From a plasmid, in the sequence record NZ_CP110904.1: a stretch of 64,000 nt of DNA, one strand, 5' to 3'. The notes beneath the pieces were generated by a model, which was given only the letters and a program-made list of their open reading frames with translations, ran no database searches and was not told the DNA's origin. This document shows, one piece after another, positions 7,987 to 33,677 of this stretch (position 1 is its first letter; the number at the start of each line of letters is the position of its first letter). A program made the position numbers and the translations under genes.

Positions 7987-10900
7987 CTACTTCTTATTAT
8001 CATTCAGCCAGTTTTCAGCTCTCTCTATTCTCGACTGATACGGTTCGTTTGTATTGTTAAGGTCTGACTTCATAAAGTTAACGAACGCATCTGCTTTATC
8101 CGACCCGAAGCGTGGATCATCGGTCAGTTGCTGACGAATCGCACGCTCTGAGTTTTGTGATGCACTCTCATACGTCTTGATCCCATCACTTCCCATATCC
8201 TTATAACGGCTGGTCACCGCGCTCAGACCATCTGACATTTGCAGGTGGTTGCCAACCTTGCCCAATAACGAACTCGGCATATTTACCGGATTCGTTGCAT
8301 CGTTTGCCAAAGATGCGGGCGTAGTCAGGACCCCAATACCTGAGAGCATGTCGTTTACGGGTTTTGCTCCGATAACGTCAAGCCCTCTGGCAACACTCTC
8401 CTGGCCAGATAAAAGCGTACTGCCAATCACACTACGTTCTGTATTGGACTCAATTTTATTACCAGCAAGGGTATCAATCGTGGTTTGGGTTCGTTGGCCA
8501 ACGATCCCGCCGCCAGAGCCGCCTTCACCAAGATTCGCCCTTATTGCTGAATCAAGAGAGCCTGAAGCCTTGTTGTGCATGTTGAAACCTTCATGGATAC
8601 TCTGGAGATCATTCATCCCCCAGCTAACGTTGTAGTGACCCAGCTCGGTGAGGAGGCTTTGAGTATCCGCTTTCAGTTGTTCTTTCTCAGCGCCGGTTGC
8701 CATTGTACTGGCCCCATAGGTAAACACGGCTTGTGCGGCCAGCTCCGCCCGTTTGTCATCCGGCTTTTTGGTTGGGTCATTTGCAACCCTGTCAAAATAA
8801 TTCGGGAGGTTGTTTGATATCCCGCGTATCTGGCTATCTCCGTACATAGAATTCAGTTTTTCGCTGGTATTACCCATGCCTGAAGTAGCATGCTTGCCGC
8901 CGATACCAGTTTGAAGCTGGTCGAAAGTTTGGTTGGCGTTCTTAACGTCCTGCCCAGCCCCCTGAATCCTTCCCACGGTCTCATTAGTCACTACAGGGGT
9001 ATTCTTATCCAACGACGAGAGAACACTTTGGTTTTCTTCGCTATAGGAGTTAGCTACATTACCTTTATGAATGCCCTGAATATCTTCTTTACTGACCGAG
9101 CCCACATTGTACGGCGTAACACCTGATTCGGTTTGTCCGCCAATATGTTGATTAGCATTCTGCTGGTTCTGTGCCAATCCAGCTTTCGCCTGAGCATCCA
9201 GACCTTGCCCTACGTCAGCAACACGATCGGCACTCATTACGCCGGAGGTATCTACATGGTCTGGTGTGCGCTCCTGCGCCTGTGCAATGGTATTAATACC
9301 CGATGCATCACCAGTGATTCGGTCAAGTTGATTGGTAATTGGCAGCATCTGTTGAGCGTTACCGCCGAAGTCAGCAACCAGCCCTTTAAGCAGGCTGGAG
9401 GTCTCACGCAGATCCTGCTTATTGCTCTCAGCCGTTTCACCCCTGGCAGTATCAATCGCAATTTTTTGCTCACTAAAGTCGCGTGTCGTTGCCACCAGCG
9501 CATCAGTTCGCTGGAGTTGTGATCCCAACTGAGTGCTGGCCTTAAATGTGTCATTGTAAGAATTGAATTTATCCATAAACGCATTCTCATCAAGACCATT
9601 TTTCCGTGCAAAATTACGCACATCATCATCGCTGAAGTTTTTATTACGAATAGAATCGGAGAATCTGTCCAGGTTGACAGACTGTCTTGAGTCGAGTGTC
9701 ATGCCGGTATTAGCGCTGGCGTTCGTTGAAAGTGACGTCGACAGATTTTCGGCCATTGTCTGTGTTGCTTGGTTCATTTTTGATGCAGCTTCTTTGAATG
9801 CATTGGTCTGTGCAAACTGATCACTGTTTACCTGAGAAGCCGCTTTACTCATTTGTTCAGAAAGCCCTGAGTTTTCTGACAATTGAGTCGTAATAGCTTT
9901 ATTCAAATCAGTTAAGAGGCTATCACTGCCTGAATTCGATTTTGAGATCCCTGAACCAACGGTACCCGATGCTTTCAGACCTAGTGAATCCATCACTTTC
10001 TGACCTATACCCCCAGCCCCCCCTTTTCCAAGTTTTTCCTCGCCACCAAGTCCCAAACTTCCATTGAGGAGAAGGTTTGACACCACACCAGCTAATTGCT
10101 GCGAATTAATTTGGTGCTTCGCCCCTACGCTATTAGCGATGTTTGCACCGGCCTGGTCTGTATATGATTTCAAGTTTTGCAGATTCGAGGAAAATTGCTG
10201 GCCCGATTGCCCCGAACGACCAACTTCACTCATCTGATTGTAGGCCTGCTGGAATGAATTACTTGCTGCACTCATGACTGATGAGGTCATTGCCGCCCCT
10301 TGTCCCTGGCTTGACGCGATACTTGAACCTGCATTCCACGTACCGAGTCGGAAGTTACTGGAGTCCATGGCCCCGCCACCGCTGAACCCCTGCCCGGTGC
10401 TTGTCAGTGCTGTACGATTAACATCCCCAAATGATGATTTTCCGCTATTTGGCGCATCCCACACTTTCGGCGTGAGGTGGCTGGAGTCCACAGGTGCGGG
10501 TGGCGTAACTCCTTTCATCGCATTCATCATTGGATGAATGGATTGCGTCATCAGGAACAGCGTCAGGACTGGGATAAGAGCATAGAGCGCTGATGCAACT
10601 GATAAGTAAGAACTATATGTTTCGGCAAGCCCTGGTAAGCCCATCCAAGTCACCGCGTTACTCTGACTATTCAGTGTGCTCCATGTATCAAGATCCGCTG
10701 TTGCCACCTTCTTCACGTAGGCATTGACCATCACCGCAGTAATCGGCCACATATTAACGAAGAGAATCAACTGAAGATATTTTGCCGCTGCGGCAACACC
10801 GTTTCCGCCGAGTGCAAGCAGCATGAGCAATGCAAACGGAGCAACCATGTACGCAAACATTTCAAGAAACGCAATTGCCGCACCAGATAATTGCAGCCAG

Positions 10901-11976
10901 AGCTGCCCCTGAGATGCCATGGTATTCGTACGTTTTAATGATGCCTCAAACAGTTGCATATCCGAGGCCAGACCAAGTGGGGTTTTGTATTTACTGGCAC
11001 CATTACGGAGCTCATTCATGATGAACAAAGAAAGCGTCGCGTCATAAGCGCCAATCGCCTTGCCATACATGCCGTTCGCCGACGCCATTACATCCGTGAA
11101 GCTCGATCCGGATGCGGCACCGCCCGCCTCTTCTGGGGTAAGAATACCGTTTGTTTGCCCAATCAAAGCAATCGTCTGTCTAGCCTCCGGGGTGCTCGTT
11201 ACCTGTTTAACGGTCGACCAGACCTCTTCACAAGTCGCTGACTTTGAACTATTCACACCCACGATGTTAGCAGATGCGTTCTTCAGCGAACCTTTCATCG
11301 CCTGATTAATGCGTTCCATGCTTTCCGCGACATTTGAAGAGAAAATATCGTTAAAAATGGTTTCTTTCCCAGCGATTTTCGCGCTTGAGTTTTGTGTTCC
11401 CTTGAGGCAGTTATAGGCCAGTGATTGCACTGTCGCACACACGTTCATTGCACCTAATCCGCTAACTGGTTCGGGGAACGCTGAACAATACCCCTGGCTG
11501 TCCCCGCCCCATTGTAAGAATTTAACGAAGCGAATCATCGGGCCAAGAGTAATGTCATCATCAAGCGTGGTTGCGGCAAAGTCGATCGGCGCCAGCGGAT
11601 CAAACGCCGTTTTATAGTCTTTGAGTAGGCCCTGGCTAAGGTTAGTGGTTACAGTTCCCATCGCCGCGATAAAAACAGGAATACCATCGACATTTCTCAC
11701 TTCACCAGACTTAACCGATTCAATAGTCACATCCACGCGTACTATTGCCATCGAAAAAAGAATCAGCCCAAGAATCCATGAAAATATCGGCACCTCTGCT
11801 TTTGTCGGGTTCAACAGCCAAAGCCATGTTTTATAAAACAGGCTGGCTCCAGCCAGCACCGCTGCCGTGGTGAGAAATGCTTTTACACCGGTATATTGTG
11901 AGAAAATCAGGGCAATCCCGTTAAGGGCGGACCACACGAACTCGATATCACCTACTGTATAGATGTTGTAATCCAT
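7987..11976 (-). CDS. traG: F-type mating-pair-formation protein TraG/TrhG-like. It has an N-terminal polytopic membrane domain and a long low-complexity periplasmic region.
   Basis: 1329 aa with several N-terminal TM segments. It sits directly downstream of the TraH-like gene (F-like order traF-traH-traG). The central region is Gly/Ser/Gln/Asn-rich. Confidence 0.6.
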   Translation of the reverse strand: MDYNIYTVGDIEFVWSALNGIALIFSQYTGVKAFLTTAAVLAGASLFYKTWLWLLNPTKAEVPIFSWILGLILFSMAIVRVDVTIESVKSGEVRNVDGIPVFIAAMGTVTTNLSQGLLKDYKTAFDPLAPIDFAATTLDDDITLGPMIRFVKFLQWGGDSQGYCSAFPEPVSGLGAMNVCATVQSLAYNCLKGTQNSSAKIAGKETIFNDIFSSNVAESMERINQAMKGSLKNASANIVGVNSSKSATCEEVWSTVKQVTSTPEARQTIALIGQTNGILTPEEAGGAASGSSFTDVMASANGMYGKAIGAYDATLSLFIMNELRNGASKYKTPLGLASDMQLFEASLKRTNTMASQGQLWLQLSGAAIAFLEMFAYMVAPFALLMLLALGGNGVAAAAKYLQLILFVNMWPITAVMVNAYVKKVATADLDTWSTLNSQSNAVTWMGLPGLAETYSSYLSVASALYALIPVLTLFLMTQSIHPMMNAMKGVTPPAPVDSSHLTPKVWDAPNSGKSSFGDVNRTALTSTGQGFSGGGAMDSSNFRLGTWNAGSSIASSQGQGAAMTSSVMSAASNSFQQAYNQMSEVGRSGQSGQQFSSNLQNLKSYTDQAGANIANSVGAKHQINSQQLAGVVSNLLLNGSLGLGGEEKLGKGGAGGIGQKVMDSLGLKASGTVGSGISKSNSGSDSLLTDLNKAITTQLSENSGLSEQMSKAASQVNSDQFAQTNAFKEAASKMNQATQTMAENLSTSLSTNASANTGMTLDSRQSVNLDRFSDSIRNKNFSDDDVRNFARKNGLDENAFMDKFNSYNDTFKASTQLGSQLQRTDALVATTRDFSEQKIAIDTARGETAESNKQDLRETSSLLKGLVADFGGNAQQMLPITNQLDRITGDASGINTIAQAQERTPDHVDTSGVMSADRVADVGQGLDAQAKAGLAQNQQNANQHIGGQTESGVTPYNVGSVSKEDIQGIHKGNVANSYSEENQSVLSSLDKNTPVVTNETVGRIQGAGQDVKNANQTFDQLQTGIGGKHATSGMGNTSEKLNSMYGDSQIRGISNNLPNYFDRVANDPTKKPDDKRAELAAQAVFTYGASTMATGAEKEQLKADTQSLLTELGHYNVSWGMNDLQSIHEGFNMHNKASGSLDSAIRANLGEGGSGGGIVGQRTQTTIDTLAGNKIESNTERSVIGSTLLSGQESVARGLDVIGAKPVNDMLSGIGVLTTPASLANDATNPVNMPSSLLGKVGNHLQMSDGLSAVTSRYKDMGSDGIKTYESASQNSERAIRQQLTDDPRFGSDKADAFVNFMKSDLNNTNEPYQSRIERAENWLNDNKK

Positions 11977-11984
11977 ATCAGACC

Positions 11985-13400
11985 TCAGTTACCTGTGCCA
12001 CGAAGACTTTCCATGAACGCCTTCCTCTTTAATCGGCGATCATCCCATGCTGAAATGACATCAGAGCTGTTACCTACCTGGCTACGGGTGAGCTCGTAAG
12101 CTGCTTTTACCTGATTGCTAAGGTTTTCAGATAACCGAGTCAGGTCCTGCCGCCGTCCGGAAAGTGATTCACTGGGGATATTCATAGCGCTGATCTTTGC
12201 TTCAACTTGCCGAAGCATGTTAATGACAAGGCTGGTGGCCGCTATTGCACTGATATCCTGGATATAGGCATAGCCTTCAGGGACATCAAAAGTCTGAAGA
12301 GAATCAAGAATTGTTGGGATGCCGATATAAGAAATAATGCGTAATTCATCATCAGAGATCCTGACATCGCTGATTGCCTTTGTTTGAACCTGAATTAGGA
12401 GGTCTGAAATCGTATCCTTCAGTCCTTTGAAACCACCATCCATCACTTCAGACATAACCAGGCATTGCGACTTTCTCGCTGAAGCAGGATCGGGTACAGG
12501 CGAACATTTGAGCATTTTTATGGAGCCACCAGCCGGAGGACCCATGATGAAATCCGATACCGTCATCGTCGATGGACGAACTTCCATCCCCGCTTTTTCA
12601 CCTTTAGCATCCCAGTTGATAATCACAGTGCCGACAAGCGACATCAACTGCTCTGCGAGTTTGTAGCCAGATAATTCAGTAACGCCACCGATATTCATAG
12701 AACCTTTATCGATGTCCATAAATGACATATAGAAAAGGTTTCCACTGAATTTTTCAGCAAACTCTTCAGGGTCTTTTGCTTTTACCTGGGAGGTCACAGT
12801 TTCTGGCGACTTGGTCATTGATGAACCGAAATCAGACAACAATCCATTAAGAGTACCAAGCATTGAAGCTGGGCCGGAACTGACCGCATTCGCATACTGG
12901 CTGGGTGGTCCAACATTTTCAGAAAGAAACGAGTAAGTAGCGTTGCAGGAATCTTTGGCAAATTTGTTCAACGCCTGCAATTTGTTCTGGATATCATTAA
13001 TAGTCGCAGCACAGTCAGCACAGATTGCCGATACCGCGACATTAAATGCATAAATCGCGGCCCCCTGCGCGATACCGCGAGCAACCTGCACCAACTGATC
13101 TCCGTTAATCATACTGAATGAACCGAGGAAAACATCGATGCCGTTACAGCCGACGGAAGCTTTGGGGAAAGACATTGAAACTAAATTGGTATTCACGTTT
13201 GTTGTGCGGTAGGAAAAAGAGCCGCCAACCACACCGGTACGGGTGGCCGTTTCAAAACTGGCCGGGCTGGTTGTCGTCATCATTCCATTAAAAATATTAC
13301 GCATGGCGTTATCGGCACCGGCATTTGGTGCAATCATCGCCGTGCAAACGGCTAACGACAAAAGTAACTTTTTTGCACAAACATGGAGGTTAGCGCGCAT
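11985..13400 (-). CDS. traH: F-type pilus assembly protein TraH/TrhH-like.
   Basis: Signal peptide MRANLHVCAKKLLLSLAVCTAMIAPNAGA. The size is about 470 aa. It lies between a TraF-like and a TraG-like gene. Confidence 0.55.
   Translation of the reverse strand: MRANLHVCAKKLLLSLAVCTAMIAPNAGADNAMRNIFNGMMTTTSPASFETATRTGVVGGSFSYRTTNVNTNLVSMSFPKASVGCNGIDVFLGSFSMINGDQLVQVARGIAQGAAIYAFNVAVSAICADCAATINDIQNKLQALNKFAKDSCNATYSFLSENVGPPSQYANAVSSGPASMLGTLNGLLSDFGSSMTKSPETVTSQVKAKDPEEFAEKFSGNLFYMSFMDIDKGSMNIGGVTELSGYKLAEQLMSLVGTVIINWDAKGEKAGMEVRPSTMTVSDFIMGPPAGGSIKMLKCSPVPDPASARKSQCLVMSEVMDGGFKGLKDTISDLLIQVQTKAISDVRISDDELRIISYIGIPTILDSLQTFDVPEGYAYIQDISAIAATSLVINMLRQVEAKISAMNIPSESLSGRRQDLTRLSENLSNQVKAAYELTRSQVGNSSDVISAWDDRRLKRKAFMESLRGTGN
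13359..13375. promoter_or_regulatory. Dispersed palindrome copy, inside the 5' end of the TraH-like gene.
   Basis: CAAAAGTAACTTTTTTG. Confidence 0.5.
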
Positions 13401-14436
13401 ATGGGCCTCCTAAACTGCCACCAACATTCAAGTAGTTCACAGGGTCCGCTGTAGGCATATCGTACCCTTCCAACTTCTGGTCCATTATTCGTTGCAATAA
13501 GAACGGGTCAGATTCCATTTCTGATTTATTCACTGTAATTACGCCATCCTCACCAATGGTATATTGGCGCTTAATATCTAACGTGGATTGGAATGAGGCA
13601 TCATCAATCAGGTTCATGCCCTTTGCAGCCAGAATAATAGTATTCTTGAGCTCCTCAGCAGTGATCATACCTTCGCTAATTCGTTGCGCTGATGACCCGT
13701 CTTTCGACACAAGGAAAATAGTTGGCACTTCGCGGATTTTGAATTGATCAATAATCTGCGCATTAGGGACAGAGAAATCCTGGAACAACCCATTTTGTAA
13801 TGGTCTGCCATCCATGCTGACAGGGAGAATGTCGACCGAATAGTAATTCTGCATAAACTGGAGGATTTGACTTTCTTCGTGGCAGAACTCACAGGTACTC
13901 TGGAAAAAGAAAAAGAGCCCGGATCTTGTGAAAATATCTTTCATTACCGTCTGCTGGTTTTTTTCCACAACCGTACGATGTGCATCCAAGGCAACCTTCT
14001 CAACCGGCTGTCTTCGTTTTTCAGACATCATTGGATTTTTAAGAAAATAATCTTTCGACTTATCCGAAAATCGCGTACCGATATCCAACATTAAACGTTG
14101 CGCTGTATAAAACCTCGATAAGTTTTCAGGGGTCGGATTATCCATTGCCTGAGTCAAAAGCCGGGGCATATTGTCCTTTAGCCACTTTGAATTAAGATCA
14201 ATCTTTTCTTCTTGTACTGGCTGGGACGAAGATGCAACAGGAGGCGTAGTCTCATTAATTTCTTCCTCAGTTTTCCGGGCTGGGTCGTCATACCAGAAAA
14301 AACCTTTCTTAAAGGCTTGTCCTGACACAAATGGGGTGTCTTTGATAAGGGTCTGGTCTTCATTTGCATGGACGCCAGTTATAAACAAAGACATCAGCAC
14401 TAACATCTTTGAAGGCAGTAACGTTAATCGAGTCAT
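13390..14436 (-). CDS. traF: Thioredoxin-fold conjugal pilus assembly protein TraF/TrhF-like.
   Basis: Signal peptide. A C-terminal thioredoxin-like region carries CEFCHEE (CxxC). It overlaps the start of the TraH-like gene. Confidence 0.5.
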   Translation of the reverse strand: MTRLTLLPSKMLVLMSLFITGVHANEDQTLIKDTPFVSGQAFKKGFFWYDDPARKTEEEINETTPPVASSSQPVQEEKIDLNSKWLKDNMPRLLTQAMDNPTPENLSRFYTAQRLMLDIGTRFSDKSKDYFLKNPMMSEKRRQPVEKVALDAHRTVVEKNQQTVMKDIFTRSGLFFFFQSTCEFCHEESQILQFMQNYYSVDILPVSMDGRPLQNGLFQDFSVPNAQIIDQFKIREVPTIFLVSKDGSSAQRISEGMITAEELKNTIILAAKGMNLIDDASFQSTLDIKRQYTIGEDGVITVNKSEMESDPFLLQRIMDQKLEGYDMPTADPVNYLNVGGSLGGPYAR

Positions 14437-15051
14437 TCACCGATCTCCTCATGGAATAGAGGTATGATGGCATAAAAAAAATCACCGGGAGTTCGATAAC
14501 GGAGTAGATTTCATGCGTTAAAAAACCAGAAATGTGACGCCGACAAAGCCCCAAAAACGACAGTTCAACACAGTGTCCCGGTAAAGACATGGTCTGTAAG
14601 AGAGAAATGGATTAATTATATGACGGTACAGTAATGCAAATTCGCGTTGTCATTCAGACAACACTATCCAGATTATGAACGATCCCCGTACTTTGCTGGT
14701 TAACGAATAAGGGAATTTATACTTAATTGAATACCTATAAGAAACGAAATTGGCAGGCGCATCATAAAATCTGGACTTTTCAAAGACCGTAATGAATCAA
14801 AGAATGGCAATTCATGTTAGTTATACTTACAGAAAATGAACGTTGGAAGGATAGAGCAGACAAAAAAATACGGATGGTAGTAATATTTAACACAGTATGT
14901 TTTAGATACGTCAGAACGGAAGCCGTCTGAAAATAAACAGCAACATGAGGAACCATGTGTAACGGTATGCAAGCCAAAGATTTAATAGATAAAGACGACG
15001 CAGTCTTTAGATTTTTGGTCTAAGCTTAAAACCACTCACATAAAGTAATAG

Positions 15052-15564
15052 CTAATCTAACTCCTCCTGAGAATATCTCGCTATTGCAGACACCGTTGAC
15101 GACAATCTGCACCGAGGGCAATGAGTATCATTGGTATACGGGACAATGTAAGGCCGCTTGCATTTCGCACAAGTTTCGAGTTCCTCTATTTCTTTCATTG
15201 ACGTGAGGATCTCAATGATTTTATTGACCTCAGGGGCGCAGACGAAATACCCAAGGTTATGCAGCACGCTCATGATTCGGTTGAAGTCAATATTGCGGAA
15301 GCTGGATTCCGGATGAATAGGATCAAAACCGAAGTAATTTACCGCGACATCAATAACCGCAGAAAATGCTCTGCGGTTATCCGAACGACGACTCCACCCT
15401 CGAATACCTTTTTTAACGTTTTGTTGAGGTTCCGATCTGAAATCAATATTTTCTGCAACATGGCTTCCATAAAGAATTCTTATTGAGTTTTTATTCGCAC
15501 CAAGTGACATCGTTTTTGTAGCGCTCAACAACATGTTAGCTTTAGTTTGATCGACTTTAGCCAT
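15052..15564 (-). CDS. Hypothetical protein with a C-terminal C4 zinc ribbon. It may be a transfer regulator.
   Basis: CAKCKRP...CPRC motif. It is the first gene of a divergent unit next to the putative oriT region. Confidence 0.3.
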   Translation of the reverse strand: MAKVDQTKANMLLSATKTMSLGANKNSIRILYGSHVAENIDFRSEPQQNVKKGIRGWSRRSDNRRAFSAVIDVAVNYFGFDPIHPESSFRNIDFNRIMSVLHNLGYFVCAPEVNKIIEILTSMKEIEELETCAKCKRPYIVPYTNDTHCPRCRLSSTVSAIARYSQEELD

Positions 15565-15569
15565 TTTTA

Positions 15570-16367
15570 TTAATCCTTCAAGAGCACTTTATTTGCCAAA
15601 GAGTTGAACACATCCTGACGGTGGCATGTAAACATAGTGTCGTAACGCAATAGTTCCATTAAGTCGTCACTAACTTTACCCAAACGAATGTCGGCAGATA
15701 ATTCGTATGCCCAGGCAAACACCTTAGATTTTAATGTTGCACTATCATCCCCCAACCCCGGTGTAAAGGCAATTATTCGTGGGAATAGAACGACATCGTT
15801 AATTGCTTTGAGTGATGACACACCAACATCTTTTATTGCATCTACGGTAGCAGGCTTTAATCCAAAAAATATACTGACAAACTCAGGTGCAAGCATTGAC
15901 ATAAAGAAGATCTGCATAAAATAATCATTTTGTATGTCTACACACTTGGAGCGTAACTGCTGAATTTTGCTCGGATTATAACAATCTTCCTGCCCATTCA
16001 ACAAAGTAACTTTTTCCCCTGCATTGTAAATGCCGAAGTCAGTATCGTCACTGTCATATTCACGGATAACGTTAGTGTCACCATCAACAACGGCCATAAA
16101 AAATTTATCCCACGAGATCTCTTTACCTAAAGAACGTGGAACGAGGAAACTTCCGGGACGTGTTTCAACTTCGAATGCATTATCAGCCATTGCCCCAAAC
16201 CCGGTTCCAAATAGACGGCGTTGCAGGAGTGGAGACCCTGTTTGATACATAGAAGATCCGTGAATAGGCAATAACATTAGGAATGCACGGTAACTACGAA
16301 TAATCGAAATCTCGGTACGTAATAGTTTACCGAGTAGGTTACGCGTTATGTTATCTGATTCTGACAT
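15570..16367 (-). CDS. Hypothetical protein. It may be a transfer regulator.
   Basis: 265-aa ORF with codon structure. An operator motif lies about 75 bp upstream and another is internal. Confidence 0.3.
   Translation of the reverse strand: MSESDNITRNLLGKLLRTEISIIRSYRAFLMLLPIHGSSMYQTGSPLLQRRLFGTGFGAMADNAFEVETRPGSFLVPRSLGKEISWDKFFMAVVDGDTNVIREYDSDDTDFGIYNAGEKVTLLNGQEDCYNPSKIQQLRSKCVDIQNDYFMQIFFMSMLAPEFVSIFFGLKPATVDAIKDVGVSSLKAINDVVLFPRIIAFTPGLGDDSATLKSKVFAWAYELSADIRLGKVSDDLMELLRYDTMFTCHRQDVFNSLANKVLLKD
16001..16018. promoter_or_regulatory. Dispersed palindrome copy, intragenic.
   Basis: ACAAAGTAACTTTTTCCC. Confidence 0.5.
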
Positions 16368-16440
16368 GTGCGGATTGTCCTTGCGTCAATACAATTGTAC
16401 TAATCTTCTACATGAAATTAAAGTTTGGTTTTTGAATGAT

Positions 16441-16456
16441 GAAAAGTAACTTTTGG
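16441..16456. promoter_or_regulatory. Dispersed palindrome copy about 75 bp upstream of the 15570..16367 gene.
   Basis: GAAAAGTAACTTTTGG. Confidence 0.6.
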
Positions 16457-16694
16457 AATTTTAATACTGCCTATTTGAGTCTTAAAACTAACCATTCATC
16501 CATTGGCCTTACTTGTAACACTTTTTAACCAAACTAACCAGGATTTTATCAAAAAACCCTGCGCTTGCTAACGAAATTTTAATCGCTTAAAAAAATAGCA
16601 AAGCCCGAATCGTTATCGGCATTAAGCGGCAATAACATTAGCGAAAAAAGCGATTCAGGATGAATATTTTTCCGATTGATTAACATGACTACTA

Positions 16695-16858
16695 CATAGG
16701 GTCACTTCTTGCCGAAAAGTGGTCCTATGAAGCCTCGACATAGGGTCACTTCTTTGTGAAAAGTGACCCTATGTAGCCAAGACATAGGGTCACTTTTTTT
16801 AAAAGTGGCACTATGCGCAAAAAACATAGGGTCACTTTTGTTTAAAAAGTGGCACTAG
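16695..16858. repeat. Four tandem imperfect 33–35-bp palindromes, CATAGGGTCACTT-N7-9-AAGTG(A/G)CCCTATG, spaced 44/44/42 bp apart. Probably oriT or relaxosome-accessory binding sites, or iterons.
   Basis: Units start at 16695, 16739, 16783 and 16825. They lie between divergent transfer operons in an AT-rich region. Confidence 0.8.
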
Positions 16859-16920
16859 ATATATGTATAACTTAGTAAGTAAAACAGCACTTTTCAGATC
16901 ACGGTCTCAAAATACCCATG

Positions 16921-16942
16921 GCAGAAAAAGTTACTTTTCTGC
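16921..16942. promoter_or_regulatory. Extended palindrome GCAGAAAAAGTTACTTTTCTGC about 190 bp upstream of the transfer operon.
   Basis: 10-bp arms. Sits between the four tandem palindromes and the first gene of the operon. Confidence 0.65.
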
Positions 16943-17123
16943 CGCGCTTAAATGCGCCCATCTCAGCCGTTCCCGTGTTCATCTGGAGCTGCGCACTATC
17001 TGTATTCCTCACGCCTCCGAAGCCCCACCTCAAAATTCTCGATAAAAATCACGGAAAAAAGTCCTGTTTGTGAAAAAAAAATAAAAACCACTTCGGTATA
17101 GTGATTTCACATCAGGAGGTCAC

Positions 17124-17609
17124 ATGTCTAATTCGAAACTAATAAAGTCACTAGAATTATCACGCAGTTTGATGCGTTCACAAATCGAGGTTCTGCGGGA
17201 GGCAGCTGAAGACCTTTGCACAAATTACTGGATCGAGTGGAAAGAACGGAATCATCTGGAGATTAATTTACCCCGGCCTAACAATACGCTAAAGCGTGAG
17301 TATCTGGGTTCGTATGCGCCGAAAATTGAATTAATCGGTAATGCCAAAAAAGTTACAATCACCTGGCATAAGTTCAGCCCGTTTAAAACCAGGTCTCCCA
17401 GTCATATGTCGAAACGGATTTCTGCGATGAAAAGCGGAAAATATTCGAAAAGCTGCTTTGTTAAGCATGCCTTCTGGGAATATGAAATGATCGAAAAAAC
17501 GGAGGGAGTACTAGAACCCTACAGAGAATTACTTGAGTTCTATCATACTGCGTATATCGAACTGGGACGCAAAATCCGTAAATACTCAAAATCAGAGGTG
17601 GCACAATGA
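17124..17609 (+). CDS. Small protein heading the transfer operon, possibly a relaxosome accessory protein.
   Basis: Strong RBS aggaggtcacATG. The stop overlaps the start of the next gene (ATGA). It sits upstream of the relaxase. Confidence 0.35.
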   Translation: MSNSKLIKSLELSRSLMRSQIEVLREAAEDLCTNYWIEWKERNHLEINLPRPNNTLKREYLGSYAPKIELIGNAKKVTITWHKFSPFKTRSPSHMSKRISAMKSGKYSKSCFVKHAFWEYEMIEKTEGVLEPYRELLEFYHTAYIELGRKIRKYSKSEVAQ

Positions 17610-18328
17610 CCGACGTAACAATTAATGAAAGCAAGCAGAAGACACCTGATGTAAATGCCCGCTCCTCTCAGACTCCTGAAGATAGCCGAAGAGCCACGCA
17701 AAGTAAAAATGAACATTACGGCATGGCAACAGTAACTATTACTCCAGGCACGCCAGACTTTAACCGATTTCTTACGGCACGGAATCGTTCCGTAATAAGA
17801 GGCTTTAATGATGTTAGCATTGCTATTTCATCATTATTCAGGACGGTTAATGCGGTAAAACACCCTGAATTGGTGCAGGCAATTCAGGACTGGTTTAATG
17901 AATTGCACGACGAAAACAATTTGATGAAGCAGAATCTGGAGGCCCACATCGCCACTATTAAGGTTGATGAAAGTGATCCATTCTTCTCATCAACTGAGTT
18001 TTCTCCGTTCAGATTTGAATCTGTCCAGTTAAACTTCAACAACCAGAACACGATGCGATTTTATAAGCACATCTTTGAAATGAACAACCTTCTGACCCAG
18101 ATGTATAAATTCAACTCTCTGGGTCAGCTGCCGGTTAGCGATTACAACGTAATGGCGCACAATATTATCCGAAGTCTCAACATGTATATCGAACGGGTCA
18201 AAAAAACACTTAACGTGTCGCGCCGTGTAAAAGGTTCTTACAGTCCTGATGAGTTTATCGAAAAGGTAAAACAGTACAAAAGCGTGCAGGCATATATTGC
18301 TGCGGAACTATCTGGTAAACGCCAATAA
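17606..18328 (+). CDS. Hypothetical protein in the transfer operon.
   Basis: 240-aa ORF translationally coupled to its neighbours on both sides. Confidence 0.35.
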   Translation: MTDVTINESKQKTPDVNARSSQTPEDSRRATQSKNEHYGMATVTITPGTPDFNRFLTARNRSVIRGFNDVSIAISSLFRTVNAVKHPELVQAIQDWFNELHDENNLMKQNLEAHIATIKVDESDPFFSSTEFSPFRFESVQLNFNNQNTMRFYKHIFEMNNLLTQMYKFNSLGQLPVSDYNVMAHNIIRSLNMYIERVKKTLNVSRRVKGSYSPDEFIEKVKQYKSVQAYIAAELSGKRQ

Positions 18329-21300
18329 GGATTATTTGATGAATTTCAGGGCGCTATTCCTAAGTATACAAAGAGTTTTAGGCATCTTCTCCAGTAGGGA
18401 GAATGATGTGGCTGAGTTAATAATGAAGGATGTTTCGAGTCTTTCACCATTTGCTCAGATTATAGGGGATCAGAAATACACTGTACCGGATCACCCGAAT
18501 CTTGAAGTCCTGAAATTCATTGAGTACCCAACTCGGCCAGCTGGGATACAAACGTTTAATGAGCAGTCTATTCTTTCTCTTTACAGAGATAAACTGCACT
18601 CAATCTCTATGATGCTGGCAATAAGTGATGGAGACATCCGTGAGGATGCCTTTACCTTCACCAATCTGGTTTTAAAACCATTGATTGAATACATCCGTTG
18701 GATTCATTTACTTCCTGCTTCAGAAAACCACCACCATAATGGTATTGGCGGATTGTTGTCACATAGCCTGGAAGTTGCAATGATTTCTTTAAAAAATGCC
18801 AATCATTCTGAATTGCGCCCAATTGGGTATCAGGATGAAGAAGTCATTCGCCGAAAAGTATATCTCTATGCCGCTTTTATCTGTGGCCTTGTGCATGATG
18901 CCGGAAAGGTATATGACCTCGATATAGTAAGTCTGAATCTGAATGAAACTTTAACATGGGCGCCAAGCTCGCAAAGCCTGCTTGACTGGGCACGTGAAAA
19001 CAATGTTGTCGAATATGAAATACATTGGCGAAAACGCATTCATAACCAACATAATATATGGTCAAGCGTTTTCCTTGAGAGAATATTAGATCCGGTCTGT
19101 ATGTCATTCCTCGACCGTGTCAAAAAGGAGCGCGTCTATGCAAAAATGGTTACGGCACTGAATGTCTATAACGATGGCAATGACTTTCTGTCCAAATGTG
19201 TAAGAACCTCAGATTATTATTCAACGGGAACTGACCTTAATGTATTGAGGGACCCGATAATGGGTCTGCGGTCGAATGATGCTGCGGCAAGAGCAATAGG
19301 TACCATTAAGCATAACTTCACCAGTATTAATATTAATAACTATAAATCCAAACCCATGCACATCATTATTGTAAACGGTGAAGTTTACCTCAATGAAAAC
19401 GCCTTCCTCGACTTTGTACTTAGTGATTTTGCGGCCCACAAGTTCAACTTCCCACAGGGGGATGCAGGTAAAACTGTACTAGTAGAGTCGCTGGTTCAAC
19501 GGGGTTATGTTGAGCCTTACGATGATGAGCGTGTGGTTCATTATTTTATTCCCGGGACATACTCGGAAAATGAAATAGCCAGCATCTTCCGAAACGGTAT
19601 CGGTAAGCTGGAATTTTATAATCTCCTGAAACTTCGCTGGATCGGGTTAATTTTTGACTCATATAAAATCCCGGATTCTGTTCCGGGCCTCTTCAGCGTT
19701 AATGCAAATAAAGATTTCATCTATATTGATGAACAGAAAACTGTAACAGAATACAGAAGGCCGGTCCCGGGTCGTGAGTCTGTTACCAGAGTAACGGACA
19801 CCGTAAGCGACGCCATTGAAGATACTCCACAATACGGACTCAAACTCGTGAACGGCCCTGATGCCGACAGTGTCAACGGTAAAAGCAGTGAAAATACTGA
19901 AGCCATCACAGAAAGTGTGGAGGCGGCTGGCACGGATAAAGCAACCGATATTATTGATCCGCAGGTTACTACGCCAACAGATACAGCCGGAACAGGCGGC
20001 TTGGATGAAAAGGAACGGGTAGAGGAACATGAAGAGCAGAGTCAGATGCGTCTGGTCGAGCAGCTGCATGAAATGCTTCTGAGCGCCCCACTGCCCCACA
20101 ACGCAGTCATTAATATTGATTCCGTACCTTACCTTAATCTCGATGCTGCTATTGCGTTAATCCCTGGTATTGATGAGGCGGCATTTTGTGATGGGCCCTT
20201 TTTCCAGCTGACGTACCGTGATGGATCACTGGATGGTATGTGGATAGTCCGTGACGTAAACAATCTACGCCTGATACAACTGGGGGATAACTGTGCTGGT
20301 ATTCAGGTGAGCACCTCGGAACCCCGAACCACTTCTACGCTGAAGTCGCTTTTTGATACGTCAATGTACCAGCCGTTGGATATCCCTGAAAGTCCATCAT
20401 TAAACGAAGCGGTTTCGCCCCCACAAACACCGCTTGATCTCCCTCCGGCGCGACTGAATACCCCCCAGGCTGTAGAGGCCAATTCGGTAGCTGAACAGAT
20501 TAACGCCCACTCCGAACCGGAGACCGTCACTGCTTCTGAGTATGAGCAATATGGCCACCTGCTGGAAGAAACCCTAGATAGCGATAGTGAGGCATATTCT
20601 GACTTTATAGTCGCCGACAACTCTGTGGTTGAACCCCCCCAGCCTGAGGCGAAAAATAGCGATGTCGCCGAATTCCATGATGAAACAGACCAGGTCGTTG
20701 CGCCCGGTAAATTGAATGATCCTGAGGATACCAGAGAGCCACCAGCTCCCAATACAACCGGGAAAGAAGTAATTTTAACAAGTCCTGTGTCATCACAGGA
20801 CCCTATAAAATCGGAACCCGCCGGGGAGAAAGCGAACCATCTATCTCCGGCCCTGGCTCGTCTGTTTGCGGTAAACACTCAAGCAGAGAAGAAGCATGAA
20901 AATCCGCCGGTCACGACTCCAGTGAAAGAAGCCTTTAATCGATCCAACTCTGCCACAGTTCAGGCTCCTATTGCCGTTGACCAACCTGGTGCAGAAGAAA
21001 AGGAGACACTGGAAGATTTTACCCTGCTAAGTGGCGGTGAAGTTACAGAACTTGAATACGTCGAAATTGCCACAATGCTTCACCACATTCTGACTAAGTT
21101 ATCTGGGTCGTTTAAAAGAAAGCGGAAAAACCGATTCATGGTTTTGACCCAGAACACCTTTTTTCTGACCCAGTCATGTGTTGAAAAATACGGGACGCAG
21201 TTAAATGCGCCTGAGCTTTTTAACCAGCTTCCTCAATACCAGGTCACCTCCGGCGCCATAGTCAATACAAAATGTTTCGCATTCAACATGCCAACTCTGG

Positions 21301-21374
21301 TAGCCGCATCCGACCGGGCAAAGGGAGATATTGAGTTAATCATTAACACACTTAAAGATGTAGGGAATCTATAA
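18297..21374 (+). CDS. traI: MOBH-family conjugative relaxase (HD-domain TraI-like) with an acidic low-complexity C-terminal half. The true start may be a downstream Met.
   Basis: HD-domain signature HHHNGIGGLLSHSLEVA ... GLVHDAGKV. It sits immediately upstream of the coupling-protein gene. The C-terminal region is Pro/Glu/Asp/Thr-rich. Confidence 0.55.
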   Translation: MLRNYLVNANKDYLMNFRALFLSIQRVLGIFSSRENDVAELIMKDVSSLSPFAQIIGDQKYTVPDHPNLEVLKFIEYPTRPAGIQTFNEQSILSLYRDKLHSISMMLAISDGDIREDAFTFTNLVLKPLIEYIRWIHLLPASENHHHNGIGGLLSHSLEVAMISLKNANHSELRPIGYQDEEVIRRKVYLYAAFICGLVHDAGKVYDLDIVSLNLNETLTWAPSSQSLLDWARENNVVEYEIHWRKRIHNQHNIWSSVFLERILDPVCMSFLDRVKKERVYAKMVTALNVYNDGNDFLSKCVRTSDYYSTGTDLNVLRDPIMGLRSNDAAARAIGTIKHNFTSININNYKSKPMHIIIVNGEVYLNENAFLDFVLSDFAAHKFNFPQGDAGKTVLVESLVQRGYVEPYDDERVVHYFIPGTYSENEIASIFRNGIGKLEFYNLLKLRWIGLIFDSYKIPDSVPGLFSVNANKDFIYIDEQKTVTEYRRPVPGRESVTRVTDTVSDAIEDTPQYGLKLVNGPDADSVNGKSSENTEAITESVEAAGTDKATDIIDPQVTTPTDTAGTGGLDEKERVEEHEEQSQMRLVEQLHEMLLSAPLPHNAVINIDSVPYLNLDAAIALIPGIDEAAFCDGPFFQLTYRDGSLDGMWIVRDVNNLRLIQLGDNCAGIQVSTSEPRTTSTLKSLFDTSMYQPLDIPESPSLNEAVSPPQTPLDLPPARLNTPQAVEANSVAEQINAHSEPETVTASEYEQYGHLLEETLDSDSEAYSDFIVADNSVVEPPQPEAKNSDVAEFHDETDQVVAPGKLNDPEDTREPPAPNTTGKEVILTSPVSSQDPIKSEPAGEKANHLSPALARLFAVNTQAEKKHENPPVTTPVKEAFNRSNSATVQAPIAVDQPGAEEKETLEDFTLLSGGEVTELEYVEIATMLHHILTKLSGSFKRKRKNRFMVLTQNTFFLTQSCVEKYGTQLNAPELFNQLPQYQVTSGAIVNTKCFAFNMPTLVAASDRAKGDIELIINTLKDVGNL

Positions 21375-23458
21375 TGGCAAAATCAAAAAGGACCAACCTG
21401 CACGCCCAGGAAAACTTTTACAGGCCGATATTGGAGTACAGAAGTGCCTCAGTACTTTTAATTTGCGCCATAATAATGCTGTTTATGGGGTTTCGATCAG
21501 ATGGGTTGAATATTGCCCCCATCATTTTGTATACCGCTGCCTTCATGCTTTTGGTTTGTTTGTACCGCTGTAAAACGGCATACCCTTATTTGATGGCGCA
21601 CTGGCGCGTGTTTCAGCGCCAGATTATGTTTATTAGCCTTAAATCGCTCAGGTCGATCAACAAAAGTAACTTTTTCTCTAACGAGCGAAAGTACCGCCAG
21701 CTGGTACAAGAGTATAAAAAATCCAACCGTCAGGTACCGGACAGAAAAACCTACTTCTGTAACGGCTTTGAATGGGGTCCCGAGCATGCAGATCGCGCGT
21801 ATCAAATTGCCAATCTCTCAAGCGATAAAAGAGAGATAGCCCTGCCATTTGCCCTAAACCCCATAGCGCGGCATTTTGAGGCGATGGCCAGATCCATGGG
21901 TGGCAGTAACGCCATTTTTGCTGTTGATAAACGGGCGCCAATTTTTGTTACCGAAGATAACTGGTTCGGCCATACCCTCATTACCGGAAACGTCGGTACC
22001 GGTAAAACAGTCCTTCAGCGGTTATTGAGCATCAGTATGCTGCATTTAGGCCACGTCATTGTGGTTATTGATCCAAAGAACGACGCAGATTGGCGGCAGT
22101 CACTTATGGATGAAGCGGCGGAACTTGGGTTGCCATTTTATAAGTTTCACCCTGCCCAGCCTTCTTCTTCAGTGTGTATTGATGTCTGCAACGCTTATAC
22201 CAATGTTTCGGACCTCACCTCACGCCTTCTTAGTCTGGTTTCGGTTCCCGGGGAAGTTAACCCATTCGTACAATATGCCGAGGCTCTCGTTTCAACTGTG
22301 ATCACCGGTCTGTCTTACACGGATAAAAAACCGTCGATATATCTCATTCATAAAAACATGAAAAGCCACATGGCAATCCTGAACCTCACCGTAAAAGTTC
22401 TGGAATGCTGTTATGCACGGCACTACGGGCCCGATGTATGGATGGAAAAGGTGAAATATTCTTCGAATGATACTCTACAAGTCCGCTTTAAGCGCCTTGT
22501 TGAATGGTTTTCTGCCCACTTCTTGAATTATGAAGGTGCCGAGCCCATTGATTGGATTGATACCGTCGGCCGGTTAGTAGATTATTCTTTGTCTGATCCT
22601 GAGCACATGTCAAAAATGACAGCGGGTATTATGCCGCTGTTCAGTCGTCTGACCGAACAACCACTGAATGAATTGCTTTCGCCGTCACCTAATTCACTCA
22701 CTTCGCGTGAAATAGTCACTTCAGATGGAATATTCAGTACCGGAGGTGTTCTCTATATCTCGCTCGATGGTCTTTCCAACCCGGAATCCGCCCGGGCTAT
22801 TTCGCAGTTGATAATGTCAGACCTGACGTCCTGCGCGGGTAGTCGCTATAACTCTGATGATGGTGATATGTCCTCACATTCAAGGATCAGTATTTTCGTC
22901 GACGAAGCACACTCCGCAATCAACAATTCAATGATAAACTTACTCGCTCAGGGTCGTGCCGCACAAATTGCATTGTTTATTTGCACGCAAACCATTTCCG
23001 ATTTTATTGCAGCAGCAAACGTTGAGACTGCAAATCGTATTACGGGTCTGTGTAACAATTACATTAGCCTGCGGGTAAACGACACCCCAACGCAAACGCT
23101 GGTTGTAGAAAACTTTGGTAAAAGTCCAATTAGTACAAATATGGTCACGTATACGACAGGATCAGAAACCACTTTGCCGCATAATAACTTCTCTGGTTCG
23201 ATATCAGAAAGAAAGCAAACAACGCTGGAAGAAAGTATTCCGAAAGAGCTTTTAGGCCAGGTTCCAAAATTTCATATTGTGGCCAGACTTCAGGATGGTC
23301 GTAAAGTCGTCGGGCAGATCCCGATTGCCGTAAGTGAAAACTCGATGAGACCCAATACAACATTATTGGAGATGTTCCTGAAACCAGCCGGAAAAGTAAC
23401 TTTGCGTCAGAATGTGGGTTTAGACTATTTAAATAAACATCTAAGGAAATTGCATTGA
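21374..23458 (+). CDS. traD: Type IV coupling protein (TraD/TraG-like ATPase).
   Basis: N-terminal TM segments, Walker A GNVGTGKTV and Walker B IFVDEAHS. It follows the relaxase gene. Confidence 0.7.
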   Translation: MAKSKRTNLHAQENFYRPILEYRSASVLLICAIIMLFMGFRSDGLNIAPIILYTAAFMLLVCLYRCKTAYPYLMAHWRVFQRQIMFISLKSLRSINKSNFFSNERKYRQLVQEYKKSNRQVPDRKTYFCNGFEWGPEHADRAYQIANLSSDKREIALPFALNPIARHFEAMARSMGGSNAIFAVDKRAPIFVTEDNWFGHTLITGNVGTGKTVLQRLLSISMLHLGHVIVVIDPKNDADWRQSLMDEAAELGLPFYKFHPAQPSSSVCIDVCNAYTNVSDLTSRLLSLVSVPGEVNPFVQYAEALVSTVITGLSYTDKKPSIYLIHKNMKSHMAILNLTVKVLECCYARHYGPDVWMEKVKYSSNDTLQVRFKRLVEWFSAHFLNYEGAEPIDWIDTVGRLVDYSLSDPEHMSKMTAGIMPLFSRLTEQPLNELLSPSPNSLTSREIVTSDGIFSTGGVLYISLDGLSNPESARAISQLIMSDLTSCAGSRYNSDDGDMSSHSRISIFVDEAHSAINNSMINLLAQGRAAQIALFICTQTISDFIAAANVETANRITGLCNNYISLRVNDTPTQTLVVENFGKSPISTNMVTYTTGSETTLPHNNFSGSISERKQTTLEESIPKELLGQVPKFHIVARLQDGRKVVGQIPIAVSENSMRPNTTLLEMFLKPAGKVTLRQNVGLDYLNKHLRKLH
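21661..21678. promoter_or_regulatory. Dispersed palindrome copy, intragenic in the coupling-protein gene.
   Basis: CAAAAGTAACTTTTTCTC. Confidence 0.5.
23389..23407. promoter_or_regulatory. Dispersed palindrome copy about 50 bp upstream of the 23455 gene.
   Basis: CCGGAAAAGTAACTTTGCG. Confidence 0.55.
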
Positions 23459-27172: not shown

Positions 27173-27577
27173 ATTCAACACCGGAATATTTTGCCATGCT
27201 TCCTGCATAATTTGCATGACCTCCCCAATGGGTAGCGACGGCCATAAGACTGTGTCAGTCATGATTACGCCAACCGGCTCACATTCAATGGGAACCAGAA
27301 TTAAAATCACACGAGTCCCTTTAACCTGATACGCAAGATTAACTACCGCCTGTCTGTAGGTTGCCAGAACACCAGAACCGTACTCCGCTGGTTTGCTGGC
27401 CCAGTTCCGTACCAGAGCATAAGCCTGCGGCATATAACGATTATCCAGAACGCCCTGTGGCCGACGAAAAGGCACAATATCATCGGAGCGGTAGATAGTA
27501 GTGGTGGTTACGTTGGCCGTTGTCATTATTAAACTCCTCCCGTCCAACCCTATTAAATCTGAATGAATAGGGTTCAA
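27167..27577 (-). CDS. Hypothetical protein.
   Basis: 136-aa ORF convergent with the NERD gene. Confidence 0.3.
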   Translation of the reverse strand: MNPIHSDLIGLDGRSLIMTTANVTTTTIYRSDDIVPFRRPQGVLDNRYMPQAYALVRNWASKPAEYGSGVLATYRQAVVNLAYQVKGTRVILILVPIECEPVGVIMTDTVLWPSLPIGEVMQIMQEAWQNIPVLNP

Positions 27578-27613
27578 CTAACAGTTCCTAGTCGTGAAAA
27601 CTGGCTAGTGTAG

Positions 27614-33650: not shown

Positions 33651-33677
33651 CGAAAAAAAAAGTAACTTTTTTTCCCG
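33651..33677. promoter_or_regulatory. Dispersed palindrome copy (site 1 of 3 upstream of parB-like).
   Basis: CGAAAAAAAAAGTAACTTTTTTTCCCG. Confidence 0.6.

Follow-up and report, generated by a model that had tools for sequence, protein, structure and literature searches.

A palindrome array with a 44-bp period upstream of mobI as a probable protein-loading site of an IncHI-type origin of transfer

The origin of transfer (oriT) of the IncHI plasmids is located in the gap between traH and trhR, and the cloned traH-trhR intergenic region of R27 was reportedly mobilised by R27. Among the genes found on these plasmids are mcr, NDM, KPC and those for metal resistance. The R27 TraH protein is a MobI-like mobilisation factor (PMC13635750), and the mobI-like genes of R27, SXT and IncA/C adjoin oriT (PMC10838148, PMC5587640). 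The IncA/C oriT is an AT-rich 150-bp segment, rich in inverted and direct repeats, that is positioned immediately upstream of mobI (PMC5587640), and in the MOBH12 systems MobI has been proposed to bind oriT and to recruit TraI (PMC5587640, PMC7449626, PMC13635750). Moreover, the MobI of IncC forms multimers, is indispensable for recognising oriT and interacts with TraI at the C-terminal domain of the latter (PMC13635750), and binding of MobI to oriT is a model under investigation (2026 IncC study).

We report that a stretch of plasmid DNA of 64,000 nucleotides (NZ_CP110904.1; the whole stretch is referred to as the window) carries four phased palindromes between trhR and mobI, and our data suggest that these probably represent the protein-loading array of an IncHI-type (MOBH11) oriT, with dimers of MobI/TraH as the inferred binder. 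This is a known kind of site and the window is an additional lineage carrying an R27-type oriT: both the intergenic position and the homology to the oriT-bearing fragment of R27 are present, as is the position upstream of a MobI-family gene that characterises the MobI-dependent oriTs.

In this region two Citrobacter freundii plasmids, pP10159-4 and pCF_324-2, match the window at 100% identity; their PLSDB typing gives an IncHI1B replicon, a MOBH relaxase and MPF_F, and the window is part of an IncHI-family plasmid with a MOBH relaxase and an F-type pilus. The array is situated in a 756-bp gap with trhR (minus strand) on one side and mobI/traH-orf2-traI and the type IV coupling protein gene (plus strand) on the other (Table 1). 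To the left of the gap, trhR, a trhY-like gene, a TraF/thioredoxin gene and trhH are all on the minus strand. The mobI/traH gene, which starts 265 bp from the end of the array, is proposed to be the essential relaxosome accessory gene that encodes the array binder. The traI reading frame is listed from a TTG codon, and the RefSeq start is ≈110 bp further in. No canonical -35 element accompanies the conserved CGGTATAGT and a sigma-70 scan returned no promoter on the plus strand; nor does the gap have a site matching the IHF consensus. The original prediction placed the array in an AT-rich gap, which is correct relative to the whole window (GC content 0.38 compared with 0.48) but only mildly so relative to the immediate flanks, and the array itself is at 0.42. 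In pCF_324-2 (CP078021, positions 8030-12274), where the gap is 100% identical, an ISKpn26 copy separates orf2 from traD and the annotation lists no relaxase gene at this site; the relaxase is probably disrupted.

Table 1. Features of the trhR-mobI region in the window, and arrays upstream of mobI in more distant lineages
Feature	Position in window	Strand	Sequence or remarks
trhY-like gene, trhR partner	15052..15564	-	R27 synteny; 98% identical to R27 protein
trhR, divergent transfer activator gene	15570..16367	-	Annotation; 91% identical to R27 protein
Operator copy	16442..16454		AAAAGTAACTTTT; 76 bp upstream of trhR start
Invariant block, left	16508..16528		CTTACTTGTAACACTTTTTAA; 21 bp, invariant in six lineages; resembles a lone half-site
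Palindrome unit 1	16695-16729		CATAGGGTCACTT-cttgccgaa-AAGTGGTCCTATG
Palindrome unit 2	16739-16773		CATAGGGTCACTT-ctttgtgaa-AAGTGACCCTATG; perfect 13-14-bp arms
Palindrome unit 3	16783-16815		CATAGGGTCACTTTT-ttt-AAAAGTGGCACTATG; 15-bp arms
Palindrome unit 4	16825-16858		CATAGGGTCACTTTT-gttta-AAAAGTGGCACTAG; right arm extends into invariant block
Invariant block	16845..16873		AAAAGTGGCACTAGATA(T/G)ATGTATAACTT; most conserved in array; TA-rich tract
Operator copy	16926..16938		AAAAGTTACTTTT; 68 bp right of array, 197 bp upstream of mobI
Conserved CGGTATAGT	17094..17102	+	Probable -10 element, mobI (H) operon; from conservation
mobI/traH	17124..17609	+	Pfam MobI PF19456, E 2.7e-20; 82% identical to R27 TraH
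orf2	17606..18328	+	240-aa ORF; R27 R0121 homologue
traI, MOBH relaxase	18297..21374	+	Pfam TraI_2, E 1.9e-31; NCBIfam MobH, E 1.2e-72
Type IV coupling protein (traG/traD)	21374..23458	+	Pfam TrwB_AAD_bind and TraG-D_C; annotation
Array of L025, 4 units			Half-site CAYAGTGTAACTTTT; centre spacing 44.5/44/44.5 bp
Array of L028, 6 units			Half-site TTATGTTTAACTTTT; centre spacing 45/45/44/44/44 bp
Array of L027, 3 units			Half-site CCTTGTCGCACTTTT; centre spacing 44/44.5 bp
Array of L023 (partial), at least 2 units			Half-site CAWAGAGTCAC
Array of Klebsiella group B (L009, L010, L019), 3 units			Half-site TCATTAGTACTTTTT; centre spacing 44.5/56 bp
Array of Klebsiella group C (L008, L020), 3 units			Half-site CATTGGTGAMTTTT; centre spacing 45/56 bp

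The array (16695-16858) consists of inward-facing palindromes built from the half-site CATAGGGTCACTTTT, also written CATAGGGTCACTT(TT). That there are four of them at a regular spacing, as originally predicted, was borne out: the start-to-start distances are 44/44/42 bp and the unit centres (16712, 16756, 16799 and 16841) follow each other in steps of 44/43/42 bp. The 13-mer half-site, allowing at most two mismatches, occurs seven times in the 64 kb, every time within the array, and the eighth copy (16845) deviates more strongly. Once three mismatches are allowed, the window as a whole has as many matches as expected by chance, and hence the signal of the array is the clustering itself. A palindrome scan (12-nt arms, at most two mismatches) gave 27 hits in the gap, where 300 shuffles averaged 0.5 and never exceeded 5, and identified the array as the sole multi-unit palindrome block in the window. 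Since the eight half-sites flip orientation every 20-22 bp, everted pairs are also palindromic; the inward-facing pairs are considered to be the true units because in other lineages the spacing between units varies while the loops within them do not. The right arm of unit 1 has two mismatches and differs among lineages, and for unit 3 the variant right arm GTGGCACTATG is conserved, with CATAGGGTCACTTTTT being invariant in six lineages. Searching the array against Rfam returned only sub-threshold hairpin artefacts (17.7-24.4 bits compared with gathering scores of 72-440). Elsewhere in the window, the isolated palindrome GTCCAACCCTATTAAATCTGAATGAATAGGGTTCAAC (27542-27578) has CCCTAT/ATAGGG in common with the array arms, which may be due to chance.

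The gap is 85% identical over 752 of its 756 bp (99%) to an IncHI1 plasmid that has the same MobI as R27. R27 itself has four units at matching offsets in its traH-trhR gap together with a matching invariant block after unit 4, and the gene order is identical to that of the window, where mobI corresponds to the R27 gene named traH. Moreover, the gap matches 1427 PLSDB records and a MobI at least 60% identical is present in 1425 PLSDB records; the two co-occur nearly one-to-one. R27 represents a different IncHI sublineage (for MobI and TrhR identities see Table 1) and its loops, spacers and flanks have diverged from those of the window. Both the context, with trhR divergent from Pfam MobI, a MOBH relaxase and a coupling protein, and the orthology to the four-unit gap of R27 support the array as the candidate oriT or relaxosome assembly site that was originally predicted.

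A close-group alignment was generated for the window lineage, p13C1065T-3, R27/IncHI1, two IncHI2 plasmids and one Photorhabdus plasmid, with MobI proteins 74-92% identical to the window MobI. The half-sites are nearly invariant in this group, the loops and the 9-bp spacers diverge, and the flanks (16596-16690 and 16875-17050) lack conservation, a pattern that shows strong purifying selection on the half-sites only of the array. Three islands of conservation could be discerned: the trhR promoter side (16368-16595, including the invariant CTTACTTGTAACACTTTTTAA), the array with its maximum at 16845-16873, and a mobI-proximal segment (17052-17123). In units 3 and 4 the right arms (GTGGCACTA) are asymmetric and have been preserved in that form, with no drift towards symmetry. 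The number of units varies: the Photorhabdus plasmid has three, unit 1 being missing, and the metagenomic contig L028 has six. In pHH107-3 (NZ_CP116408), a remnant typed as non-mobilizable, exactly one 44-bp unit (unit 2; window 16730-16773) has been lost, presumably through recombination between repeats.

The gap upstream of mobI was also compared in seven further lineages having MobI proteins 32-58% identical to that of the window; eight lineages were thus compared in total, with the window's group A among them. In the distant lineages the half-site sequence is replaced and the architecture is usually kept, with two to six palindromes that are mostly 44-45 bp apart (Table 1); the array of L029 is irregular. 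The inner ACTTTT...AAAAGT core is retained in every lineage and it is the outer 6-9 bp that differ, the Klebsiella-type half-site being TCATTAGTAC. At the end of the last unit, CACTAGATATAT recurs in L025 and L023. The synteny trhR followed by mobI-orf2-traI is present in all distant lineages except L023, which is a short partial contig, and L028, for which 2.9 kb of the 3.3-kb contig was found to have the array and mobI and no detectable trhR, intact orf2 or traI.

Two of the arrangements upstream of mobI deserve separate mention. The Klebsiella pneumoniae plasmid pK187_rmpA2 (L010, NZ_MK347227), which is of the rmpA2 virulence type and typed as non-mobilizable, has mobI and its own 3-4-unit array at 2548-2730, and no relaxase or pilus genes were found near these; acting in cis, the array might allow a helper plasmid to mobilise pK187_rmpA2. 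In Vibrio hepatarius (L021, 1957-2447), eight 18-nt direct repeats, AAAGTCGGCACCGAACTG, precede a mobI whose product is 32% identical, and the distance between them alternates between ≈55 and 75-88 bp, i.e., the architecture differs and the position matches. These Vibrio direct repeats and the repeats of IncC itself suggest that repeats upstream of mobI are general and that the 44-bp palindrome array is specific for MOBH11-like systems.

A second motif, the 13-bp palindrome AAAAGTWACTTTT, is dispersed throughout the window, with 47 strand matches at two or fewer mismatches compared with 2.5 expected. These correspond to approximately 25 sites that are mostly intergenic (e.g. 5532, 7616, 7694, 13360, 16442, 16926, 21662 and 53395), and the 19 exact cores are mostly 22-76 bp upstream of gene starts. 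A single intergenic region harbours three copies, at 33659, 33776 and 33893, with exactly 117 bp from one to the next. The motif looks like the operator of a backbone-wide regulator. It is conserved in all MOBH11 lineages compared, also in those with a MobI of only 32% identity; each of them has a copy after the array, and no other element of the gap is common to all eight lineages. The original prediction regarded the inner half-sites of the array as near-copies of this operator, such that the same or a related protein could link oriT to the backbone regulon. They have only the 6-bp core ACTTTT/AAAAGT in common and the geometries are head-to-head versus tail-to-tail; that one protein might form this link is a lead that the shared core neither supports nor refutes.

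A cis site that is unique, with selection confined to the half-sites, a period of ≈44 bp and a specificity that changes between lineages, would be expected to have a dimeric and cooperative binder encoded by the module itself. MobI/TraH is the best candidate because it is essential for DNA processing and not for the pilus, and because it always accompanies the array; that the IncC homologue multimerises, is needed for oriT recognition and contacts the C-terminal domain of TraI argues in the same direction. In such a mechanism, each unit would be bound by a dimer of the essential accessory protein MobI/TraH, and adjacent dimers ≈44 bp (approximately four helical turns) apart would interact such that the DNA becomes bent or wrapped. 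The complex would recruit the HD-domain relaxase TraI via the C-terminal domain of TraI, cf. the IncC MobI proposal, and help to melt the adjoining TA-rich invariant block, with one strand being nicked there or nearby. The same complex might perhaps also damp or insulate the two divergent promoters.

Some observations speak against MobI loading, or limit it. The literature searched yielded no experiment on the array as such, and the mobilisation reported for R27 pertains to its entire gap. Bound dimers were originally predicted to sit on one face of the DNA, which holds only approximately: steps of 42-45 bp correspond to 4.0-4.3 turns of B-DNA, and successive sites would share a face only roughly, an arrangement compatible with wrapping. 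This departure from whole turns and the 56-bp step of Klebsiella groups B and C count against the preferred reading. So does the end of the array 265 bp from mobI, whereas the core oriTs of IncC and MGIVchHai6 abut mobI. The AlphaFold model of MobI (pLDDT 90.9) has two long antiparallel helices with a beta-hairpin tip and is prefoldin-like; comparing this model with known structures gave only generic coiled coils and prefoldin, with no ribbon-helix-helix (RHH), helix-turn-helix (HTH) or other recognisable DNA-binding fold, which likewise counts against this reading. Moreover, TrhY, TrhR, MobI, orf2 and TraI diverge in parallel among the lineages, with the residue differences between groups B and C being scattered, and therefore covariation cannot single out MobI over TrhR, TrhY or orf2.

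An unlikely alternative is that the array mainly provides transcriptional control of the divergent trhR and mobI promoters, bound by MobI as an autoregulator or by TrhR/TrhY, and that oriT is elsewhere in the gap. The central position between two divergent operons would agree with this. Control of the operon that encodes them is common among relaxosome accessory proteins (TrwA, TraY, TraJ/TraK), which makes a dual role plausible, and transcriptional control may be an additional role of the array. Also, TrhR/TrhY activate the R27 H operon (PMC7366339). However, the array is far from the promoters that it would control: the candidate trhR promoters, each over 120 bp away, and the start of trhR are at distances of ≈125-330 bp, and the conserved mobI -10 is at ≈240 bp. 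The half-site is, furthermore, absent from the gap upstream of trhF, which by synteny should be the place of the TrhR/TrhY-activated F promoter of R27, and from the remainder of the 64 kb; its absence suggests that it is not the site of a global regulator and argues against TrhR/TrhY as the binder. The contig L028 likewise keeps the array by mobI with no trhR in the part examined.

It is quite improbable that the palindromes are instead hairpin recognition elements for the relaxase, with TraI binding the stem and cutting beside it as in MOBH2 of the gonococcal genetic island (GGI). As single-stranded DNA each unit is predicted to fold into a stable hairpin (dG -7 to -14 kcal/mol, z -3.7 to -8.5, unit 2 having the extreme values of -14 kcal/mol and -8.5), the GGI TraI depends on an inverted repeat of 32 nt on the 3' side of the nick (PMC6736028), and the invariant block is 5' of unit 4 on the minus strand, which is the GGI arrangement. 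A single cleavage site would, however, have no need of a set of four to six equivalent copies that repeat every 44 bp, and the stem mismatches in units 3 and 4 are conserved with no compensation. The outer half-sites are fully replaced between lineages although the N-terminal region of TraI is 54-65% identical compared with 38-50% for MobI, and oriT recognition by MOBH1 relaxases depends on MobI (PMC13635750). Finally, regular repeats in an AT-rich gap generally resemble replication iterons or a centromere for partition; such an identity is extremely improbable here and was rejected because the repeats are inverted rather than direct, because rep and par genes are absent within ≈5 kb on either side (with no par among the neighbours at 11985-23458), and because the array and mobI occur together across IncHI1B, IncFIA(HI1), IncHI2A, IncFIB/HI1B and IncU-like plasmids.

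The best nick or melting candidate, judging from its conservation, is the invariant block at 16845-16873: the runs 16845-16861 and 16863-16873 are invariant in the window lineage, p13C1065T-3, R27, the two IncHI2 plasmids and the Photorhabdus plasmid. A nick in its minus strand would have the inverted repeat 3' of the nick, as in MOBH2, with the relaxase operon being the last part transferred to the recipient. The sequence TATGTATAA after the last unit matches the Klebsiella lineages at p ≈0.1-0.2, which is not significant alone. None of the IncP, F, R388 and Q nick consensus sequences is present, and a search for a nick motif common to all eight gaps returned the dispersed operator as the only shared k-mer, which was rejected as a nick site on the basis of its ≈20 recurrences. 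The motif ATCCTG on the minus strand near 16656 was also discarded, lacking conservation in R27 and IncHI2. No MOBH1 nick site was found reported in the literature searched, and attempts to map the IncA/C nick failed (Hegyi 2017).

The left invariant block (16508-16528) shows 82% complementarity with the right-hand portion of unit 4, and similar blocks are found directly to the left of the first unit in L028, L009, L019 and L020. In the window lineage it is 160 bp from unit 1 with a non-conserved insert in between. On these grounds it is a candidate for either a left boundary element or a trhR promoter element.

Whether the 44-45-bp period is a general hallmark of MOBH11 oriTs is more speculative, and the full scheme is possible but on balance doubtful: a MobI polymer along the array would wrap the DNA and open the TA-rich block for the HD-domain relaxase, the outer 6-9 bp would define the specificity group, and the number of units, from two to six, would tune the transfer frequency. 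If true, cross-mobilisation would be expected among IncHI1, IncHI2 and the window lineage, and the IncHI1B/FIB lineages of Klebsiella, with the virulence plasmids among them, would be orthogonal. The IncHI relatives include Klebsiella virulence plasmids that retain mobI and an array without the pilus. We did not find the array, its 44-bp period or the MOBH11 lineage variants described in a literature search that covered reports other than the primary R27 and R478 ones; sequence-string searches of the literature found neither motif quoted in a plasmid context, and the IncHI2 papers mention oriT only in passing. The array represents a defined and evolutionarily conserved candidate MobI operator with natural variants in specificity and unit number, which makes MobI binding, oriT specificity and cross-mobilisation between IncHI subgroups directly testable.

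In the F and R388 systems, oligomeric accessory proteins bound at TraM sbmA-C, TraY sites and TrwA sbaA/B bend the DNA, aid melting and recruit the relaxase or the coupling protein. The arrays there resemble the present one in having repeated accessory-protein sites beside the nick that are often autoregulatory; however, those accessory proteins are of the RHH type and their sites are unrelated, whereas the model of the window MobI has neither an RHH nor an HTH. The GGI likewise has a MOBH-family relaxase (MOBH2 TraI) and a ≈32-nt inverted repeat that is essential next to the nick (PMC6736028). The inverted-repeat size is similar, but the window locus is not a GGI-type MOBH2 oriT: the GGI has a single inverted repeat and does not need MobI, while the window has four phased repeats and mobI. 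With respect to IncC, no similarity to its oriT was detected, the best local alignment to peH4H 1-322 being no better than that of shuffles (p ≈0.5). Specifically, IncC has 14-bp direct and short inverted repeats abutting mobI, compared with palindromes of 33-35 bp at a 44-bp period 265 bp away in the window, and its mobI is ≈50 kb from traI, whereas mobI and traI are in one operon in the window. What the window does have in common with IncA/C, SXT/R391 and MGIVchHai6 (MOBH12) is an AT-rich oriT with several repeats upstream of an essential mobI (PMC5587640, PMC7449626, PMC13635750). Taken together, the array reveals no new kind of system, and its chief value is as a substrate for tests of the recognition of oriT by MobI.
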